DNA of 64,000 bases, from positions 186,001 to 250,000 of the forward strand of contig NW_027254447.1 in the NCBI RefSeq assembly GCF_044704955.1. The letters run 5' to 3'. The position numbers and the translations under genes are program-made. The notes under the pieces were generated by a model that was not told the DNA's origin, did no database searches, and worked only from the letters and a program-made list of their open reading frames with translations. This DNA is from Pristiophorus japonicus (taxonomy: Eukaryota). This document shows positions 1,266-62,169 of the stretch, piece after piece. Within the stretch, counting starts at the first letter, position 1; each line of letters opens with the position of its first letter.

Positions 1266-4157
1266 CTAGTTCTGCTTTCATAGCTTTGCAGTCGCCTTTA
1301 TTTAGAATCAGGACACTGGTTTGAGATCTGACTTTCTCACTCTCCAACTGAATTTGAAATTCAACCATGTTATGTTCACTTTTTCCCAGAGGATCCTTTA
1401 CTATGAGATCATTTATTAATCTTGTCTCATTACACAATACCAGATCTAAGATAGCCTGCTCCCTGGTTGGTTCTGCAACGTACTGTTCAAGGAGACCATC
1501 CCAGATACAGGGCCCAAGTTTCCACACGATAAAAAACGGGCGCCCCTCCGAGCTGGGCGCCCGTTTTTCGCGCCTAAAACGGCGCCTAAAAAAAAAAATT
1601 GCGATTCTGGAGCGCTTTGCAGCTCCTTGTCTGTTTGGCGTGGCGCCCAGGGGGGCGGAGTCTATACTCGCGCCGATTTTGTAAGTGGGAGGGGGCGGGT
1701 ACTATTTAAATTAGTTCTTTTCCTGCCAGCAACGCTGCTCATGCGCGTTGGAGCGTTCGCGCACGCGCAGTGTGAAAAAAACATTGGCACTCGGCCATTT
1801 TTGTAGTTCTTTGTAGCTGTTTAATTTTTGAACATTTTTTTAATAAAAGCACATTGCCATCAGCACTTGCAGCCTTTTCACTGTCCCCCCCTCCCCCCCC
1901 ACTTGCGGGAAGAACGGGCGCCCCCCCCCCCCCCCCCCCGGAACAGGCGCCTCCTCCCTCCTCCCCCCCCCCCCCCCCCCCCCCCGCGGGAAGAACGGGC
2001 GCCTCCTCCTCCACCCCCCCCCGCCACGGGAAGAACGGGCGCCTCAGGCTGACTGCAGCATTCTCCAGAAGCACTTTCACATAGGTCGGAAGATGGTTTA
2101 TTTAATCTTTTCTTTGCTTATTGCTTATAAATGTTTATTCAGGTTGGATTTATTTGTAGAAGTATAAATAAGGATTTATTGTAGAATTTAATGACTTCAC
2201 TTCCTCCCCCCCCACCTCGTTCTGGACGCCTAATTTGTAACCTGCGCCTGATTTTTTTAATGTGTAGAACAGGTTTTTTCAGTTCTACAAAAATCTTCAC
2301 TTGCTCCATTCTAACTTGGTTTGGAGTACGTTTTCACTGTGGAAACTTTGAAATCAGGCGTCAGTGGCCGGACACGCCCCCTTTTGCAGAAAAAATTCTG
2401 TTCCAAAGTAGAACTGTTCTACCTGACTAGAACTGCAGAAAAAAAAATGTGGAGAATTGCGATTTCTAAGATAGTCCGTTCTCCACCAGTTGCTCCTAAA
2501 AGAAACTTGGGCCAATACTCTTATAAACTCTTCCTCAAGTCTACCTTGGCCAATTTGATTTGTCTAATCAATATGAAGCTTAAAATCGCCAGTGATTATT
2601 GCCGTACCTTTCTTACAAGCCTCCATTGTTTCTTGATTTATACTCCATCCAACAGTGTAGCTACTGTTAGGGAGCCTATAGACTACGCCCACCAGTGACT
2701 TCTTACCCTTATTATTTATTATCTATACCCAAATTGATTCTACATCTTGATCTTCTGAACCCAAATAATTTCTCACCACTGCACTGATCCCATCGTTTAT
2801 TAACAGAACTACCCCACCTTTTCCTTTCTGTCTTATCCTTCTGAATTGTTAAATACCCCTGAATATTTAGTTCCCAGCCTTGGTCACCTTGCAACCTCGT
2901 CTCTGTAATGGCTATCAGATCATACCTATTTGTATCTATTTGTGCCGTCAACTCATCTATCTTGTTACGAATGCTGCGTGCATTCAGATAAAGAACTTTT
3001 AATTTTGACTTTTTACCATTTTCCCCTGCTTTGACCCTACTTTCTGTTACACTCTTATTTTTATACATTCTGTCTTTTCCTGTCACAGTCTGATTCTCAT
3101 TTCCCACAGTGCTACCCTGCTCTATTGCCTTCTCCTTGCTCTTTGACATTTTAAATTTCCTCTCACCTGAACCCTCCCCCCCCCCCCCCCCCATCCACCG
3201 CTCCCCCCCCCCCCGACCTATTTAGTTTAAAGCCCTCTTTACAGCCCTAGTTATTCGCTTCGCCAGGACATTAGCACCAGCCTGGTTCAAGTGAAGCCCA
3301 TCCCAACGGAACAGCTCCCTCTTGCCCCGGTACTGGTGCCAGTGCCCCATGAATCGAAACTCATTTTTCCCACACCAGTCTTTGAGCCACGTGTTCATCT
3401 CTCTGATCTTATTTATCCTATGCACATTTGCACGTGGCTCAGGTAGTAATCCAGAGATTATTGCCTTCATGGTTCTGCTTTTTAATTTAGCCCCTAGCTA
3501 CTCAAATTCCCTCAGCAGAACCTCTTTCTTTGTTCTACCTATGTCATTAGTACCTACGTGGCCCACGACAACTGGATCTTCCCCCTCCCACTCCAAGTTC
3601 CTCTCCAGCCCAGAGGCGATGTCCTGAACCTTGGCACGTCGCAGGCATCACAGCCTTCGGGACTCACGCTCTCGGCTGCAGAGAACAGTATATATCTCCG
3701 AAACTATACTCTTTCCTATCACTACAACATTTCTTTTTACTCCCCCCACTTGAATGTCCTCCTGTACCACGGCGCTGTGGTCAGTTTGCTCATCCTCCCT
3801 GCAGTCCCTGCCCTCGTCCAAGCAGGGAGCACGAATCTCGTACCTGTTGGACAATTGCAAGAGCTGAAGCTCCTCCATCACGACCTCCAGGGTCCCCACA
3901 GCTGCCTCGCTCATAGTCACACCCTCCTGTCCCTAACCATGGACCAAATTTGAATTAATTAATCTAAGGGGTGTGACTGCCTCCTGGAACACAGCGTCCA
4001 GGTAACTCTCCCCCTCCCTGATGTGTCGCAGTGTCTGCAGCTCGGACTCCAGCTCATCAACGCGGAGCTGAAGTTCCTCGAGAAACCAACATTTACTGCA
4101 GATGTGGTCGCCGTGGACCTCAATGGGGTCAACCAGCTCCCACCTGCAGCAGCAGTA
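1266..4157 (-). mobile_element. Decayed CR1 LINE 5' half (ORF1 zinc-finger/esterase + ORF2 endonuclease), interrupted by a MITE-like element
   Basis: ORFs 3648..3920 and 3222..3470 (esterase, DGLH, ends RALN*); 2712..3194 (YLNARSIRNK..ITET); 1147..1527 (EPTREQAILDLVL). Confidence 0.88.
1510..2514. mobile_element. Non-autonomous DNA transposon (MITE-like)
   Basis: Terminal inverted repeats GGCCCAAGTTTC (1511-1522) / GAAACTTGGGCC (2502-2513); the CR1 sequence is contiguous across it; no transposase ORF. Confidence 0.8.
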
Positions 4158-21400: not shown

Positions 21401-24135
21401 TAATGTTCCCTGCAAGCTTCTTCTCGTACTCCATTTTCCCTGCCCTAATCAAACCCTTTGTCCTCCTCTGCTGAGTTCTAAATTTCTCCCAGTCCCCGGG
21501 TTCGCTACTATTTCTGGCCAATTTGTATGCCACTTCCTTGGCTTTAATACTATCCCTGATTTCCCTTGATAGCCACGGTTGAGCCACCTTCCCTTTTTTT
21601 ATTTTTACGCCAGACAGGAACGTACAATTGTTGTAATTCATCCATGCGGTCTCTAAATGTCTGCCATTGCCCATCCACAGTCAACCCCTTAAGTATCATT
21701 CGCCAATCTATCCTGGTCAATTCATGCCTCATACCTTCAAAGTTACCCTTCTTTAAGTTCTGGACCATGGTCTCTGAATTAACTGTTTCATTCTCCATCC
21801 TAATGCAGAATTCCACCATATTATGGTCACTCTTCCCCCAAGGGGCCTCGCACAATGAGATTGCTAATTAATCCTCTCTCATTACACAACACCCAGTCTA
21901 AGATGGCCTCCCCCCTAGTTGGTTCCTCGACATATTGGTCTCGAAAACCATCCCTGATGCACTCCAGGAAAGCCTCCTCCACCGTATTGCTTCCAGTTTG
22001 GCTAGCCCAATCTATGTGCATATTAAAGTCACCCATTATAACTGCTACACCTTTATTGCATGCACCCCTAATTTCCTGTTTGATGCCCTCCCCAACATCA
22101 CTACTACTGTTTGGAGATCTGTACACAACTCCCACTAACGTTTTTTGCCCTTTGGTGTTCTGCAGCTCTACCCATATAGATTCCACATCATCCAAGCTAA
22201 TGTCTTTCCTAACTATTGCATTAATCTCCTCTTTAACCAGCAATGCTACCCCACCTCCTGTTCCTTTTATTCTATCCTTCCTGAATGTTGAATACCCCTG
22301 GATGTTGAGTTTCCAGCCCTGATCATCCTGGAGCCACGGCTCCGTAATCCCAATCACATCATATTTGTTAACGTCTATTTGCACAGTTAATTCATCCACC
22401 TTATTACGGATACTCCTTGCATTAAGACACAAAGCCTTCAGGCTTGTTTTTTTAACACCCTTTGTCCTTTTAGAATTTTGCTGTACAGTGGCCCTTTTTG
22501 TTCTTTGCCTTAGGCTTTTCTGCCCTCCACATTTCCTCATCTCCTTTCTGTCTTTTGCTTTTGCCTCCTTTTTGTCTCCCTGCATTGGTTCCCATCCCCC
22601 TGCCATATTAGTTTAACTCCTCCCCAACAGCACTAGCAAACACTCCCCCTAGGACATTGGTTCCGGTCCTGCCCAGGCGCAGACCGTCCGGTTTGTACTG
22701 GTCCCACCTCCCCCAGAACCGGTTCCAATGCCCCAGGAATTTGAATCCCTCCTTGCTGCACCACTGCTCAAGCCACGTATTCATCTGCGCTATCCTGCGA
22801 TTCCTACTCTGACTAGCACGTGGCACTGGTAGCAATCCCGAGATTACTACTTTTGAGGTCATACTTTTTAATTTAGCTCCTAGCTCCTTAAATTCGTTTC
22901 GTAGGACCTCATCCCTTTTTTTACCTATGTCGTTGGTACCAATGTGCACCACGACAACTGGCTGTTCTCCTTCCCATTTCAGAATGTCCTGCACCCGCTC
23001 CAAGACATCCTTGACCCTTGCACCAGGGAGGCAACATACCATCCTGGAGTCTCGGTTGCGGCCGCAGAAACGTCTATCTATTCCCCTCACCATTGAATCC
23101 CCTATCACTATCGCGCTCCCACTCTTTTTCCTGCCTTCCTGTGCAGCAGAGCCAGCCACGGTGCCATGAACTTGGCTGCTGCTGCCCTCCCCTGATGAGT
23201 CATCCCCCCCAACAGTACTCAAAGCGGTGTATCTGTTTTGCAGGGGGATGACCACAGGGGACCCCTGCACTACCTTCCTTGCACTACTCTTCCTGCTGGT
23301 CTTCCATTCCCTATCTGGCTGTGGACCCTTCTCCTGCGGTAAGACCAACTCACTACACGTGATACTCACGTCATTCTCAGCATCGTGGATGCTCCAGAGT
23401 GAATCCACCCTCAGCTCCAATTCCGCAACGCGGACCGTCAGGAGCTCGAGGCGGATACACTTCCTGCACACGTAGTCGCCAGGGACACCGGAAGTGTCCC
23501 TGAGTTCCCACATGGTACAGGATTTACTTCAGTTCCTCTTTCTTGCTAGACCCTCGGTCCCCCAGTATTTCCGAAAGGTTATTTGTGTCTTCCTCAGTGA
23601 AGACAGAACCGAAGTATTTGGTCAATTGTTCTGCCATTTCTTTGTTCCCCATTATAAATTCACCTGATTCTGACTGCAAGGGACTTACATTTGTCTTCAT
23701 TAATCTTTTTCTCTTCACATATCTATAGAAGCTTTTTCAGTCACTTTTTATGTTCCCAGCAAGCTTACTCTCATACTCTATTTTCCCCCTCCTAATTAAA
23801 CCCTTTGTCCTTCTCTGCTGAATTCTAAATTTCTCCCAGTCCTTAGGTTTGCTGCTTTTTCTGGCCAATTTATATGCCTCTTCCTTGGTTTTAAAACTAT
23901 CCCTAATTTCCCTTGTTAACCACGGTTGAGCCACCTTCCCCATTTTATATTTATGCTAGACAGGGATGTACAATTGTTGAAGGTCATCCATGCGATCTTT
24001 AAGTGTCTGCCATTGCCTATCCACCGTCAACCCTTTAAGTATCATTTGCCAGTCTATCCTAGCCAATTCACGTGTCATACCATCGAAGTTACCTTTCTTT
24101 CAGTTCAGGACCCTAGTCTCTGAGTTAACTGTGAC
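18407..24135 (-). mobile_element. CR1 LINE (host copy) split by a younger CR1
   Basis: ORF2 pieces 18516-19581 and 23520-24135 are colinear across the insertion. Confidence 0.85.
19582..23519 (-). mobile_element. Near full-length young CR1 LINE, frameshifted, lacking its 5' UTR
   Basis: ORF1 22608..23513 (SGNH esterase); ORF2 broken into 21827..22606, 21550..21855, 20937..21674 and 19816..20784; highly similar to 56630-60614. Confidence 0.95.
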
Positions 24136-54695: not shown

Positions 54696-56035
54696 AGCGA
54701 GCAGCAGCCTCCTTACAGCAGCACATCGCTTTGGGAGCGTGTCCGCAGATGGGCTCAGAGATCGGCACTGAGTCCGGGGGAAGTTCAAGGGGAGTCGGAG
54801 TCTGTGTGTAACAGGCGGAGTGGAGCAAGAACTGGTCTCAGTGCGTGGAGTGAATGGGGGAAGGGAGAGGCCATTCTTGGGCTGTGTGTGGACAGCGTGT
54901 GTCCCGGGTAAGGGAGACAGAATGGGAAGGATCTGCTGTTTACAGTCATTGCTGCTTTCTCCCTGTAAACCAGTAGTGAACGTTCCTGCTTTAGTTCCAG
55001 TCTCACCGTGTTTGTTGTCATTGGACAGTGAGCGGTGGAAGCAGAGCCGGACAGTGAGGATTTATACAAGGAGCATCTATTGCAGGCACCGGGTGAGAAA
55101 TGTGAAAGACACGTTTTAAACAGCGGCTCTTTGTTTCTGGTTGAACGGTTAGTGCCCTGGGAGAGGGGAGTAGCAATCTGAGCTGTGTAAAAGTCCGTGC
55201 CCCATCGGGTCGTCCCATTCCTGAAGCAGGGCAGGGGTTGGGTTGTATCTGGATGTCAGTAAATTGCTGTAAATCTGCCCAACACACTTGGTGTGCAGAA
55301 GCTGAGTACTGCAGTGGAGTCAGACACTGACATTGTTTGTATCGCTGGCTTTTCTTTGTGAATGTTCATAACGAATATTAATTGAACAATTACATTCATT
55401 ACTTTAGTATTTTCTCCTTCTCCTGTTCTTGAATGATCAGAGATACCATTTCTTCCTACAGGCAAGGAATTGAAGGTACAGGAACAAATGTGAAGTTTCT
55501 GCCACCTGAGACATAAGGAACAGTGCAACTGGCTCCTTGTACACACAGTAGGTACGGTATTACTCAGAGAGGACGAAACCAGGGAATTGGTGATGGGGTA
55601 CATGGAGATGGCAGAAACTCTGACCAAATATTTTGAATCAGTCTTTACGGGAGAGGAGACTAAAAATATCCCACCAGTGGATAGTCAAGGGGTTATGGGG
55701 GGTGGGGGCTATATCACAATCACTAATGAGGTGGTAAATGTCCTGGACCTGATGGCTTGCATCCTAGGGTCTTGAGAGAAGTAGTGGCAGGGATAGTGTA
55801 TTCATTGGTTGTAATTTACCAAAATTCCCTGGATTCTGGGGAGGTCCCAGCAGATTGGAAAACTGAAAATGTAACACCCTTTTTTGAAAAAGGAGGCAGA
55901 CAAAAAGCAGGAAACTATAGACCAGTTAGCCTAATATCTGTGGTTGGGAAAATGTTGGAGTCTATTATTAAAGCAGTACCAGGACATTTGGAAAAGCATA
56001 ATTCAGTCAGGCAGAGTCAGCATGGATTTATGAAG

Positions 56036-56428
56036 TCAGTCGAGGAGGCGGGAGCTCGGAGCAGCGTGAGTCCGGGGTCGGCGAGAGGCCTATAAAGGCC
56101 AGCGGGAGTCGGGCAGTTCGAGCAGTCAGTCGAGGAGGCGGGAGCTCGGAGCAGCACGAGTCCGGGGTCGGCGAGAGGCCTATAAAGGCCAGCGGGAGTC
56201 GGGCAGTTCGAGCAGTCAGTCGAGGAGGCGGGAGCTCGGAGCAGCGCGAGTCCGGGGTCGGCGAGAGGCCTATAAAGGCCAGCGGGAGTCGGGCAGTTCG
56301 AGCAGTCAGTCGAGGAGGCGGGAGCTCGGAGCAGCGCGAGTCCGGGGTCGGCGAGAGGCCTATAAAGGCCAGCGGGAGTCGAGGAGGCGGGAGCTCGGAG
56401 CAGCGCGAGTCCGGGGTCGGCGAGAGGC
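56036..56428 (+). repeat. 90-bp GC-rich tandem monomers in the CR1 5' UTR
   Basis: 3 full and 2 partial near-identical units; GGCCTATAAAGGCC occurs 4 times. Confidence 0.95.
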
Positions 56429-56595
56429 GTACCGGTGCAGCTACAGGGAGAAGGCAAAAAAACAAAGGTGACGTCACAGACTAGGGGGTAAGTGATTGGC
56501 TGGTGATTGGTGAGTAGTTTTTCTTTTTCTTCTTATATTGGTCAGTAACTTTTAACATTGTTATTACCAGTTTAAGTGTATCTAAGGGTTAAGAC

Positions 56596-57543
56596 ATGGC
56601 AGGAGAGCTCGGTCGGGTGTTATGCTCCTCCTGTACCATGTGGGAACTCAGGGACACTTCCGGTGTCCCTGACGACTACGTGTGCGGGAAGTGTATCCGC
56701 CTCCAGCTCCTGACGGTCCGCGTTATGGAATTGGAGCTGAGGGTGGATTTACTCTGGAGCATCCACGATGCTGAGAATGACGTGAGTATCACGTGTAGTG
56801 AGTTGGTCTTACCGCAGGGAAAGGGTCCACAGCCAGATAGGGAATGGAAGACCAGCAGGAAGAGTAGAGCAAGGAAGGTAGTGCAGGGGTCCCCTGCGGT
56901 CATCCCCCTGCAAAACAGATACACTGCTTTGGGTACTGTTGAGGGGGATGACTCATCAGGGGAGGGCAGCAGCAGCCAAGTTCATGGCACCGTGGCTGGC
57001 TCTGCTGCACAGGAGGGCAAGAAAAAGAGTGGGAGAGCGATAGTGATAGGGGATTCAATTGTGAGGGGAATAGATAGGCGTTTCTGCGGCCGCAACCGAG
57101 ACTCCAGGATGGTATGTTGCCTCCCTGGTGCAAGGGTCAAGGATGTCTCGGAGCGGGTGCAGGACATTCTGAAATGGGAGGGAGAACAGCCAGTTGTCGT
57201 GGTGCACATTGGTACCAACGACATAGGCAAAAAAAGGGATGAGGTCCTACGAAACGAATTTAAGGAGCTAGGAGCTAAATTAAAAAGTAGGACCTCAAAA
57301 GTAGTAATCTCGGGATTGCTACCAGTGCCACGTGATAGTCAGAGTAGGAATCGCAGGATAGCGCAGATGAATACGTGGCTTGAGCAGTGGTGCAGCAGGG
57401 AGGGATTCAAATTCCTGGGGCATTGGGACCGGTTCTGGGGGAGGTGGGACCAGTACAAACCGGACGGTCTGCACCTGGGCAGGACTGGAACCAATGTCCT
57501 AGGGGGAGTGTTTGCTAGTGCTGTTGGGGAGGATTTAAACTAA
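56596..57543 (+). CDS. CR1 ORF1p: zinc finger/leucine zipper + SGNH esterase
   Basis: CSSC..CGKC, heptad leucines, IGDS, GTND and DGLH. Confidence 0.93.
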   Translation: MAGELGRVLCSSCTMWELRDTSGVPDDYVCGKCIRLQLLTVRVMELELRVDLLWSIHDAENDVSITCSELVLPQGKGPQPDREWKTSRKSRARKVVQGSPAVIPLQNRYTALGTVEGDDSSGEGSSSQVHGTVAGSAAQEGKKKSGRAIVIGDSIVRGIDRRFCGRNRDSRMVCCLPGARVKDVSERVQDILKWEGEQPVVVVHIGTNDIGKKRDEVLRNEFKELGAKLKSRTSKVVISGLLPVPRDSQSRNRRIAQMNTWLEQWCSREGFKFLGHWDRFWGRWDQYKPDGLHLGRTGTNVLGGVFASAVGEDLN

Positions 57544-57620
57544 TATGGCAGGGGGATGGGAACCAATGCAGGGAGACAGAGGGAAACAAAAAGGAGCCAA
57601 AAGCAAAAGACAGAAAGGAG

Positions 57621-60527
57621 ATGAGGAAAAGTGGAGGGCAGAGAAACCCAAGGCAAAGAACAAAAAGGGCCACTGTACAGCAAAATTCTAAAAGGACAAA
57701 GGGTGTTAATAAAACAAGCCTGAATGCTTTGTGTCTTAATGCAAGGAGTATCCGCAATAAGGTGGATGAATTAATTGTGCAAATAGATGTTAACAAATAT
57801 GATGTGATTGGGATTACGGAGACGTGGCTCCAGGATGATCAGGGCTGGGAACTCAACATTCAGGGGTATTCAACATTCAGGAAGGATAGAATAAAAGGAA
57901 AAGGAGGTGGGGTAGCATTGCTGGTTAAAGAGGAGATTAATGCAATAGTTAGGAAAGACATTAGCTTGGATGATGTGGAATCTATATGGGTAGAGCTGCA
58001 GAACACCAAAGGGCAAAAAACGTTAGTAGGAGTTGTGTACAGACCTCCAAACAGTAATAGGGATGTTGGGGAGGGCATCAAACAGGAAATTAGGGGTGCA
58101 TGCAATAAAGGTGCAGCAGTTATAATGGGTGACTTTAATATGCACATAGATTGGGCTAGCCAAACTGGAAGCAATACGGTGGAGGAGGATTTCCTGGAGT
58201 GCATAAGGGATGGTTTTCTAGACCAATATGTTGAGGAACCAACTAGGGGGGAGGCCATCTTAGACTGGGTGTTGTGTAATGAGAGAGGATTAATTAGCAA
58301 TCTCATTGTGCGAGGCCCCTTGGGGAAGAGTGACCATAATATGGTGGAATTCTGCATTAGGATGGAGAATGAAACAGTAATTTCAGAGACCATGGTCCAG
58401 AACTTAAAGAAGGGTAACTTTGAAGGTATGAGGCGTGAATTGGCTAGGATAGATTGGCGAATGATACTTAGGGGGTTGACTGTGGATGGGCAATGGCAGA
58501 CATTTAGAGACCGCATGGATGAAGTACAACAATTGTACATTCCTGTCTGGCGTAAAAATAAAAAGGGGAAGGTGGCTCAACCGTGGCTATCTAGGGAAAT
58601 CAGGGATAGTATTAAAGCCAAGGAAGTGGCATACAAATTGGCCAGAAATAGCAGCGAACCTGGGGACTGGGAGAAATTTAGAACTCAGCAGAGGAGGACA
58701 AAGGGTTTGATTAGGGCAGGGAAAATGGAGTACGAGAAGAAGCTTGCAGGGAACATTAAGGCGGATTGCAAAAGTTTCTACAGGTATGTAAAGAGAAAAA
58801 GGTTGGTGAAGACAAACGTAGGTCCCCTGCAGTCAGAATCAGGGGAAGTCATAACTGGGAGCAAAGAAATGGCGGATCAATTGAACAAGTACTTTGGTTC
58901 GGTATTCACTAAGGAGGATACAAACAACCTTCCGGATATAAAAGGGGTCAGAGGGTCTAGTAAGGAAGAGGAACTGAGGGAAATCTTTATTAGTCGGGAA
59001 ATTGTGTTGGGGAAATTGATGGGATTGAAGGCCGATAAATCCCCAGGGCCTGATGGACTGCATCCTAGAGTACTTAAGGAGGTGGCCTTGGAAATAGCGG
59101 ATGCATTGACAGTCATTTTCCAACATTCCATTGACTCTGGATCAGTTCCTATGGAGTGGAGGGTAGCCAATGTAACCCCACTTTTTAAAAAAGGAGGGAG
59201 AGAGAAAACAGGGAATTATAGACCGGTCAGCCTGACCTCAGTAGTGGGTAAAATGATGGAATCAATTATTAAGGATGTCATAGCAGTGCATCTGGAAAAT
59301 GGTGACATGATAGGTCCAAGTCAGCATGGATTTGTGAAAGGGAAATCATGCTTGACAAATCTTCTGGAATTTTTTGAGGATGTTTCCAGTAAAGTGGACA
59401 AGGGAGAACCAGTTGATGTGGTATATTTGGACTTTCAGAAGGCTTTCATCAAGGTCACACACAAGAGATTAATGTGCAAAGTTAAAGCACATGGGATTGG
59501 GGGTAGTGTGCTGACGTGGATTGAGAACTGGTTGTCAGACAGGAAGCAAAGAGTAGGAGTAAACGGGTACTTTTCAGAATGGCAGGCAGTGACTAGTGGA
59601 GTGCCGCAAGGTTCTGTGCTGGGGCCCCAGCTGTTTACATTGTACATTAATGATTTAGACGAGGGGATTAAATGCAGTATCTCCAAATTTGCGGATGATA
59701 CTAAGTTGGGTGGCAGTGTGAGCTGCGAGGAGGATGCTATTAGGCTGCAGAGTGACTTGGATAGGTTAGGTGAGTGGGCAAATGCATGGCAGATGAAGTA
59801 TAATGTGGATAAATGTGAGGTTATCCACTTTGGTGGTAAAAACAGAGAGACAGACTATTATCTGAATGGTGACAGATTAGGAAAAGGGAAGGTGCAACGA
59901 GACCTGGGTGTCATGGTACATCAGTCATTGAAGGTTGGCATGCAGGTACAGCAGGCGGTTAAGAAAGCAAATGGCATGTTGGCCTTCATAGCGAGGGGAT
60001 TTGAATACAGGGGCAGGGAGGTGTTGCTACAGTTGTACAGGGCCTTGGTGAGGCCACACCTGGAGTATTGTGTACAGTTTTGGTCTCCTAACTTGAGGAA
60101 GGACATTCTTGCTATTGAGGGAGTGCAGCGAAGGTTCACCAGACTGATTCCCGGGATGGCGGGACTGACCTATCAAGAAAGATTGGATCAATTGGGATTG
60201 TATTCACTGGAGTTCAGAAGAATGAGAGGGGACCTCATAGAAACGTTTAAAATTCTGACGGGTTTAGACAGGTTAGATGCAGAAAGAATGTTCCCAATGT
60301 TGGGGAAGTCCAGAACCAGGGGTCACAGTCTGAGGATAAGGGGTAAGCCATTTAGGACCGAGATGAGGAGAAACTTCTTCACCCAGAGAGTGGTGAACCT
60401 GTGGAATTCTCTACCACAGAAAGTAGTTGAGGCCAATTCACTAAATATATTCAAAAGGGAGTTAGATGAAGTCCTTACTACTCGGGGGATCAAGGGTTAT
60501 GGCGAGAAAGCAGGAAGGGGGTACTGA
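57621..60527 (+). CDS. CR1 ORF2p: APE endonuclease + reverse transcriptase
   Basis: 968-aa open frame with NARS, ITETW, GDFN, SDH, PQGSVLGP and FADD. Confidence 0.97.
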   Translation: MRKSGGQRNPRQRTKRATVQQNSKRTKGVNKTSLNALCLNARSIRNKVDELIVQIDVNKYDVIGITETWLQDDQGWELNIQGYSTFRKDRIKGKGGGVALLVKEEINAIVRKDISLDDVESIWVELQNTKGQKTLVGVVYRPPNSNRDVGEGIKQEIRGACNKGAAVIMGDFNMHIDWASQTGSNTVEEDFLECIRDGFLDQYVEEPTRGEAILDWVLCNERGLISNLIVRGPLGKSDHNMVEFCIRMENETVISETMVQNLKKGNFEGMRRELARIDWRMILRGLTVDGQWQTFRDRMDEVQQLYIPVWRKNKKGKVAQPWLSREIRDSIKAKEVAYKLARNSSEPGDWEKFRTQQRRTKGLIRAGKMEYEKKLAGNIKADCKSFYRYVKRKRLVKTNVGPLQSESGEVITGSKEMADQLNKYFGSVFTKEDTNNLPDIKGVRGSSKEEELREIFISREIVLGKLMGLKADKSPGPDGLHPRVLKEVALEIADALTVIFQHSIDSGSVPMEWRVANVTPLFKKGGREKTGNYRPVSLTSVVGKMMESIIKDVIAVHLENGDMIGPSQHGFVKGKSCLTNLLEFFEDVSSKVDKGEPVDVVYLDFQKAFIKVTHKRLMCKVKAHGIGGSVLTWIENWLSDRKQRVGVNGYFSEWQAVTSGVPQGSVLGPQLFTLYINDLDEGIKCSISKFADDTKLGGSVSCEEDAIRLQSDLDRLGEWANAWQMKYNVDKCEVIHFGGKNRETDYYLNGDRLGKGKVQRDLGVMVHQSLKVGMQVQQAVKKANGMLAFIARGFEYRGREVLLQLYRALVRPHLEYCVQFWSPNLRKDILAIEGVQRRFTRLIPGMAGLTYQERLDQLGLYSLEFRRMRGDLIETFKILTGLDRLDAERMFPMLGKSRTRGHSLRIRGKPFRTEMRRNFFTQRVVNLWNSLPQKVVEANSLNIFKRELDEVLTTRGIKGYGEKAGRGY

Positions 60528-62169
60528 AGTTTCATGTTCAGCCATGAACTCATTGAATGGCGGTGCAGGCTAGAAGGGCTGAATGGCCTGCTCCTGCACC
60601 TATTTTCTATGTTCTATGAAGGGGAAGTCATGTTTGAAAAATTTGTTGAAGTTCTTTGAGGATGCAACGAACAGGGTGGATAAAGGGAAACCAGTGGATG
60701 TGGTGTATTTGGACTTCCAGAAGGCACTTGACAAGATGCCACATAAAAGGTTACTGCACAAGATAAAAGTTCATGGGATTGAGGGAAATATATTAGCATG
60801 GATAGAGGACTGGCTAACTAACAGAAAAGTGAGAGTCGGGGTAAGTGGTCATTCTCTGGTTGGCAACCCGTAACTAGTGGGGTGCCGCAGGGATCAGTGC
60901 TGGGACCCCAACTTTTTACAATCTATATTAACGACTTGGAAGAAGGGACTGGATGTAACATAGCCAAGTTTGATGATGATACAAAGATGGGAGGAAAAGC
61001 AATGCATGAGGAGGACATAGACAGGCTATGTGAGTGGGCAAAAATTTGGCAGATGGAGTATAATGTTGGAAAATGTGAAGTTATGCACTTTAGCAAAAAA
61101 AAATCAAACAGCAAGTTATTATTTAAATGGGGAACAATTGCAAAGTGCTGCAGTACAGCAGGATCTGGTGCATGAAACACAAGGTTAGTATGCAGGTACA
61201 GCAAGTGATCAGGAAGGCCAATGGGATCTTGGCCTTTATTGAAAAGGGGATGGAGTATAAATGCAGGGAAGTTTTGCTACAGTTATACAGGGTAGTGGTG
61301 AGGCCATACCTGGAATACTGTGTACAATTTTGGTTTCCATATCTAAGAAAGAATATACTTGCTTTGGAGGCAGTTCAGAGAAGGTTCACTAGGTTGATTC
61401 CGGAGATGAGGGCGTTGACTTATGAGGATAGTTCAGTAGGTTTGCCTCTACTCATTGGAATTTAGGTGATCTTATCAAAACATATAAGATTATGAGGGGG
61501 CAGAGAAGATGGTTCCACTGATAGGGGAGACTAGAACTAGGGGGCATAATCTTAGAATAAGGGGCCACCCATTTAAAACTGAGATGAGGAGAAATTTCTT
61601 CTCTGAGGGTTATAAATCTATGGAATTTGCTGCCTCAGAGAGCTGTGGAAGCTGGGTCATTGAATACATTTAAGACAGAGATGGACAGTTACTTAACCGA
61701 TAAGGAAATAAGGGGTTATAGGGCACGGGCAGGGAAGTGGACCTGAGTCCATGATCGGATCAGCCATGATCGTATTAAATGGTGGAGCAGGCTCGAGGGG
61801 CCGTATGGCCTACTCCTGCTCCTATTTCTTATGTTCTTAATATCAATTCCACACTCATAGACAGCAGAAGTAGTCAGTCCCGCAATGATCCAAATTTCCA
61901 GATATACATTTTCAATCTAGCCATCAAACAGAGCAGGAGAGACAGAAGTTGTTAACATTTCACCATAACTCAGTACTGTTCACAGGTAGATACATCAATC
62001 CCAGTCAAAATACACACCCATTATCAGCCTGAAAGGCACAATGTTAATCTCACAATAGTGCAGCCATAGTGACAAATTAACTATCAGAGAGAATAGACAA
62101 ATAGTATCTGAAAGGTATAGAATAAATCCACATCATAAGGTTCAGACTGAAAGATATAGAATGTATCCC

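Follow-up and report, generated by a model that had tools for sequence, protein, structure and literature searches.

The stretch of DNA analysed here (the window: 64,000 nucleotides (nt) of Pristiophorus japonicus, assembly GCF_044704955.1, contig NW_027254447.1, positions 186,001 to 250,000 of the forward strand) carries a full-length long interspersed nuclear element (LINE), referred to as copy A, which by its architecture and the homologues of its first open reading frame (ORF1) is an esterase-type vertebrate CR1 element. The ORF1 product has a Cys-rich N-terminus, a long helix, a disordered linker and an SGNH esterase domain (Pfam PF13472, E 4e-14; ZfL2-1 esterase structure 4c1b, E 7e-45), and its closest named homologues, among the matches listed by the protein search, belong to sharks and rays. 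In most vertebrate species, CR1 is the retrotransposon group that predominates (PMC13343379), and the translation of the second ORF of LINEs is an open question (PMC3708506, PMC5009743; papers are cited throughout by PubMed Central number). Here, we describe the junction between the two ORFs of CR1, which probably directs programmed -1 ribosomal frameshifting and would in this way yield an ORF1p-ORF2p fusion. The features of copy A on which the argument is built are the following:

56036..60614, plus strand: copy A, a full-length CR1 LINE lying within an older fragment of CR1 ORF2
56596..57543, plus strand: ORF1, 315 amino acids from its ATG, with Leu-Asn as the last residues before the stop
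57516..57518, plus strand: TAG five codons upstream of the heptamer, which closes the -1 frame, with no ATG between the two
57534..57540, plus strand: slippery heptamer T_TTA_AAC, in X_XXY_YYZ phase
57541..57543, plus strand: ORF1 stop codon TAA, abutting the heptamer
57551..57560, plus strand: G tract after the stop, a candidate stimulator, with GGGGG from 10 nt past the heptamer and a second, less conserved G run at 57558-57560
57540..57728, plus strand: linker rich in Lys, Arg and Gly, read in the -1 frame between the heptamer and the first strand of the endonuclease (EN)
57621..57623, plus strand: first in-frame ATG of ORF2, at a place not kept in other lineages
57729..60527, plus strand: ORF2 core, APE-type EN and reverse transcriptase (RT) (PF03372, PF14529, PF00078)

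ORF1 of copy A closes with GAT TTA AAC TAA. The -1 frame opens at 57519 and is free of stops until 60527, with the EN and RT domains inside it. The positions that an initial annotation had assigned to the TAG, the TTTAAAC, the TAA and the ATG at 57621-57623 were all re-read as given, as were the placement of ORF2 in the -1 frame and the 29 open codons from the heptamer to the ATG at 57621. That ATG had been called annotated; it is merely the first one in frame, with no annotation there, and is preceded by three out-of-frame ATGs (57545, 57556 and 57566). The heptamer TTTAAAC alone is not rare, with 13 matches on the two strands of the window, so that its conservation, and not its mere presence, is the test. 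Its constant position among relatives, together with the phase and the codons used there, is what goes beyond chance.

Seventeen junctions were compared at the DNA level: those of three copies in the window and 14 of 61 fetched loci. Among the 47 loci left out, 32 end before the end of ORF1 or have no C-terminal match; the 15 others (L023, L033, L037-L039, L041, L043, L046-L050, L053, L055 and L056) have a readable end, no heptamer and no ORF2 match, and are treated as other SGNH proteins. The two further copies of the window have their junctions at:

22608..22617, minus strand: junction of copy B, of the same family as copy A (ORF1 93% identical at the amino acid level), with G_TTA_AAC followed by TAA and a 10-nt deletion downstream
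3222..3231, minus strand: junction of copy C, of another family (ORF1 39% identical at the amino acid level), with T_TTA_AAC followed by TAA and expanded downstream G runs

Expansion of the post-stop G runs of copy C (3175-3215, minus strand) to lengths of 12 and about 17 G displaces the frame. The three window copies are shark-type, 12 junctions are bird-type by best match, and the hosts of L002 and L003 are unknown; at least five lineages are represented, which share less than about 46% identity across their final 80 codons. Thirteen of the 17 junctions lie exactly at the projected end of ORF1, and in the other four (L003, L005, L025 and L035), where indels had displaced the projection, the junction was set manually close to it, a procedure biased towards the motif. 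Kinship among the copies inflates all the junction counts given below.

The terminal Leu codon is TTA and the terminal Asn codon AAC at every one of the 17 junctions, against a background, in the matching regions, of 10 TTA among 132 Leu codons and 21 AAC among 57 Asn codons. In 13 conserved columns, the 11 controls (other Leu, Asn, Gly, Phe, Val and Cys residues) vary synonymously and only the terminal Leu and Asn are fixed; synonymous sites have therefore had time to change. The chance of finding TTA followed by AAC is 0.028 per lineage, or about 2e-8 for five lineages if these are independent. The initial annotation had named conservation of TTTAAAC at synonymous positions as a check; it is borne out, with no synonymous variant at either codon, and is refined by the first base, which is T at 15 junctions and G at two. 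It had also named a variable phase between the ORFs as a refutation, and the first EN strand lies in the -1 frame at 11 of the 14 readable junctions (binomial p 7e-4, kinship ignored). The frameshift that it had proposed is thus supported by codon fixation and by the -1 phase, at the level of sequence.

The surroundings of the heptamer are also constrained. A stop codon follows it directly at 15 of 17 junctions (TAG in 10, TAA in 4, TGA in 1), purine-rich bases precede it, and conservation at the nucleotide level reaches about 24 nt beyond the stop. Of the 15 copies that can be read here, 13 have GGGGG beginning 10 nt past the heptamer, L008 at 9 nt and L003 at 7 nt, and without gaps G is found at +11, +12 and +14 in all 15. 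The linker from the heptamer to EN is of very different length among relatives (33, 37, 41, 48, 51, 61, 66, 88 and about 93 codons), and in L002 and L025 there is no Met ahead of the first EN strand. The -1 frame is shut 1-5 codons upstream of the heptamer in 13 of 17 junctions, so that no upstream AUG gives access to the F-K-L encoded there. Four fused-protein matches were also retrieved, two of which (P0123 and P0041) run from esterase to EN through F-K-L; these are gene models of probably decayed copies and were not counted.

The same ending is seen at the protein level. When the best 120 of 170 ORF1 homologues listed were considered, 102 proteins, the query included, reached the C-terminus, and 86 of them end exactly in Leu-Asn; those with a named host include proteins of rays, sharks, coelacanth, frogs, turtles, lizards, a snake, a plover and a mormyrid fish. 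One record with this ending, P0008, is labelled as a Pseudomonas aeruginosa SGNH hydrolase, has 62% identity to ORF1 of copy A and is probably a contamination. Over the 136 Leu-Asn proteins of both searches, a residue that has no codon ending in U precedes the Leu in two, and occupies the two preceding positions in 57 and 55; this near-absence is what a requirement for T directly before TTA would predict.

From the best 150 of the 16,586 matches of a profile search came 132 further proteins, and of the 99 readable distant tails 65 end in Asn, where 4.3 would be expected: Leu-Asn in 48, Gly-Asn in 9, Lys-Asn in 3 and other pairs in 5. The residue preceding the pair can supply the needed base in 48/48, 9/9 and 3/3 cases, respectively; Gly-Asn is preceded by Gln in eight proteins and by Ser in one, and Gln never precedes Leu-Asn. 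In a follow-up of the Gly-Asn family, 13 of 19 matches end in Gln-Gly-Asn and four of the others stop short of the end. The Leu-Asn, Gly-Asn and Lys-Asn endings match the peptides of U_UUA_AAC, G_GGA_AAC and A_AAA_AAC, all three of them among the four sites that PMC5009743 names as the shiftiest. Furthermore, nine distant proteins (P0184, P0202, P0203, P0211, P0240, P0246, P0248, P0256 and P0258) have x-Lys-Asn 2-12 residues before their end, which, at the protein level, would fit an internal A_AAA_AAC with a short overlap.

Contigs from four sequencing runs were aligned to positions 57100-57960; 40 of 399 variant rows were listed, hence no invariance is claimed for 57535-57543. In a run possibly sharing the source of the window, position 57534 is G in 3,179,636 of a depth of 4,879,952 (about 65%), which implies a large subfamily with G_TTA_AAC. 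In two runs of another species G is found there in 0 of 45,649 and 0 of 2,703. In these same two runs the bin 57535-57563 has depths of 188,133 and 6,881, and the next two bins fall to 16,971 and then 145 in the first run and to 541 and then 26 in the second, a pattern indicating that in these runs the stretch from the heptamer to the G run is retained, unlike the linker and the ATG region.

The junction has the heptamer phase, the -1 frame open into EN (11 of 14) and the synonymous-site conservation of a canonical -1 signal; its downstream part is of a different kind. The initial annotation had proposed, as a check, to fold the 80 nt downstream: the G-rich tract is indeed present, and strong folding is not, the 80 nt of copy A reaching -7.8 kcal/mol (z -1.4 to -1.6). 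A G-quadruplex is predicted in 4 of 15 copies, and the four runs of copy A, with a spacer of 10 nt, gain just 0.4 kcal/mol; quadruplexes placed behind UUUAAAC with a 6-8 nt spacer gave about 7% shifting (PMC3919603). A perfect 11-base-pair complement joins 56901-56911, in ORF1, to 57548-57558, in the G-run region, 640 nt away, and was found in none of 100 shuffles. As a general stimulator this long-range helix was discarded, being found in copies A and B and missing from 13 other copies. In Rfam, no match was found at the junction and there was one chance-level match elsewhere. The CR1 junction is consequently not filed as a canonical two-part -1 frameshift signal; its conservation, well beyond chance, is best explained by a structure-free, non-canonical form of such a signal.

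According to the frameshifting model, most ribosomes would terminate at 57541 and free the 315-amino-acid ORF1p, and a minority would slip back by one base, with the Leu and Asn tRNAs on UUA AAC, and resume at codon position 57540, reading on through a linker that is basic and flexible. The predicted fusion would have 315 + 995 = 1,310 amino acids and contain EN and RT. Most speculative is how slippage would be stimulated: the pause may stem from the adjacent stop and from the G run, which would act as a signal bound by a protein or contacting the ribosome, and not from a pseudoknot. Pausing at stop codons is described as dependent on upstream GA-rich sequence and able to couple to frameshifting (PMC13341110). 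Equally speculative is the purpose, which might be, as for Gag-Pol, a low and fixed ratio of RT to ORF1p and the tethering of RT to ORF1p assemblies.

Several observations weigh against this model. No stem-loop or pseudoknot common to the copies was found in the 80 nt after the stop of 15 copies (z -2.25 to +1.77), with a folding program that does not model pseudoknots and a purine-rich tract in which no helix is shared, and four G runs of at least three within 60 nt are present in 3 of these 15. At two of the 17 junctions no stop follows the heptamer; EN lies outside the -1 frame in three of 14 (copy B, through its 10-nt deletion, copy C, through its G-run expansion, and L035), and L006 has a stop at the start of EN. 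We tentatively read these out-of-frame, stop-bearing and stop-less exceptions as decayed copies. An in-frame ATG overlaps the stop or lies 2 nt past it in five bird-type copies (L005, L007, L008, L019 and L030), the overlap in L030 being TAATG. Since mammalian LINE ORF2 is thought to be initiated without its AUG (PMC5009743), a missing AUG in CR1 is not diagnostic, and the functions of ORF1 are described as needing its separation from ORF2 (PMC3708506). The G_TTA_AAC variant is an imperfect site and a weaker fit than T, although it fits the model, G_UU(A) being listed among the sites at which equine arteritis virus tolerates slippage (PMC5009743, PMC3542737). Lastly, the Gly-Asn and Lys-Asn pattern is seen at the protein level only, in putative LINE ORF1 products, and 34 of the 99 distant tails do not end in Asn, including one whole clade of 8 without such an ending.

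The main alternative is that the conserved tract is a termination-reinitiation signal, in which the G run would help to retain ribosomes that restart at a nearby AUG or near-cognate codon and produce a separate ORF2p. It agrees with the stop retained at 15 of 17 junctions, with the lack of a frameshift-type structure, with the AUG-independent start favoured for ORF2 of mammalian LINEs (PMC5009743) and with the five of 17 copies that have an in-frame ATG beside the stop, one of them as TAATG, which is the arrangement of SART1 (PMC3708506, PMC10275272). However, the position of the usual ATG is occupied by ATG in 4 copies and by GTG, TCG, TCC, TGG, AGG, GCG, GAA or GAC in the other 13, and in copy A the nearest ATGs are out of frame and a SART1-type AUG at the stop is absent. 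Reinitiation would also leave unexplained why an X_XXY_YYZ site fits directly before the stop and varies only to a known tolerated site, and why the peptides of three shifty heptamers alternate among distant homologues. On balance, we consider it unlikely, if still the most serious competitor of frameshifting.

Clearly less probable is a cis-element acting outside translation, in RNA processing, packaging or recognition by the proteins of the element, with ORF2 starting elsewhere. Conservation of nucleotides for about 24 nt past the stop would suit such an element, as would the 11 base pairs that, in copies A and B, the G-run region could form with a stretch 640 nt upstream (matched by none of 100 shuffles). 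On the other hand, the motif keeps a fixed relation to the stop and to the two reading frames, the complement is missing in 13 other copies, none of the 15 joints listed out of 101 falls at the junction, and the TAA of the shark-type copies removes the AG that a splice acceptor requires. That Leu-Asn is simply required by the esterase, with codon choice and phase inherited by chance, is hardly credible: both residues are invariant in the alignment (of sequences chosen from Leu-Asn enders) and the predicted last helix extends to the Leu (structure model; predicted local distance difference test, pLDDT, 78 in the final block), but a constraint on the protein could not single out TTA from its five synonyms, or set the preceding base, when codons of other conserved residues are free to change, the ending persists in tails that extend 25-39 residues past the catalytic His motif, and many SGNH homologues end differently.

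Programmed frameshifting of the CR1 type would have relatives among known systems. One is the ORF1a/1b junction of nidoviruses, in which the shift likewise occurs at the end of the first ORF into the frame of the polymerase, and the coronavirus U_UUA_AAC and the G_UUA of equine arteritis virus correspond to the CR1 heptamers both in class and in the first-base change that is tolerated (PMC5009743, PMC3542737). There, however, a stem-loop or pseudoknot lies 5-9 nt downstream (PMC3542737), whereas none is conserved in CR1, and the system is a virus and not a LINE of the host genome. In retroviruses and long terminal repeat (LTR) elements, as predicted for CR1, a structural or chaperone ORF in frame 0 is followed by the enzymes in the -1 frame and a low level of fusion is made; pol is in the -1 frame in 28 of 51 animal LTR elements (PMC5009743). 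Unlike Gag, CR1 ORF1p is an esterase (PMC3905857), the domain search of copy A found no protease domain to cut the fusion, and CR1 copies itself by target-primed reverse transcription.

Among APE-type non-LTR elements, a precedent for frameshifting in a LINE is offered by TRE5-A and TRE3-A of Dictyostelium, which are said in a review to require a -1 frameshift for ORF2 (PMC5911963); these are amoebal, and their ORF1 is unrelated to that of CR1. The -2/-1 signal in nsp2 of PRRSV (the virus behind the porcine reproductive and respiratory syndrome) also relies on a short motif that is unstructured and lies downstream of the slip site, with a spacing that matters (PMC7618843). The PRRSV motif is C-rich and bound by PCBP and a viral protein, whereas the CR1 candidate is G-rich. 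The spacer of the PRRSV nsp2 signal is 10 nt. The UAAUG stop-start of SART1 and the AUG-independent initiation of mammalian L1 also concern the second ORF of a bicistronic LINE RNA, and L030 has TAATG, but they produce a separate ORF2p and no slippery heptamer is described for them in the available portions of PMC3708506, PMC5009743 and PMC10275272.

No report of frameshifting at the CR1 junction was met among the papers listed by the literature searches, the coverage of which does not include the original CR1 descriptions of the 1990s to 2003, where it may be mentioned. In their available portions, PMC13343379, PMC3708506, PMC4120745 and PMC8665684 do not mention frameshifting, PMC5009743 does not mention CR1, and PMC11835228 treats frameshifting for retroviruses only.

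The remaining features of copy A concern its ends:

56034..56381, plus strand: tandem array in the 5' untranslated region, a 90-nt unit repeated 3.9 times with 98% matches
56029-56035 / 60615-60621, plus strand: likely 7-base-pair target-site duplication, of ambiguous boundary as it overlaps a unit of the 3' repeat

The array contains TATAAA inside the repeated unit and, judged from this organization, looks like a monomer-type internal promoter. At the 3' end there are short tandem repeats without poly(A), together with the short target-site duplication. Short-repeat, poly(A)-free 3' ends are characteristic of CR1. The repeats are in part documented as a CR1 trait (PMC8665684). Two substitutions are present in the RT of copy A (59430-59465, plus strand), in a motif kept by neighbouring CR1 fragments, and given these the element may be inactive despite its open frames. 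The older CR1 ORF2 fragment around copy A (55500-56035 and 60615-61740, plus strand) resumes its reading beyond the insertion, copy B (minus strand, about 23520) likewise adjoins another piece of CR1 ORF2, and CR1-like fragments make up much of the window.

A wider proposal is possible, and is put forward tentatively: that the esterase-type CR1 elements of jawed vertebrates, together with distant relatives using G_GGA_AAC or A_AAA_AAC, make RT only as a Gag-Pol-like fusion, through a stimulator consisting of the adjacent stop and an unstructured GGGGG at a fixed 10 nt, of a kind not yet described. If frameshifting is true, the start of ORF2p would be mis-set whenever it is taken from the first ATG; RT would be delivered joined to ORF1p, with the ratio of ORF1p to RT set by a signal of 25 nt; and a structure-free stimulator would have been kept from sharks to birds.

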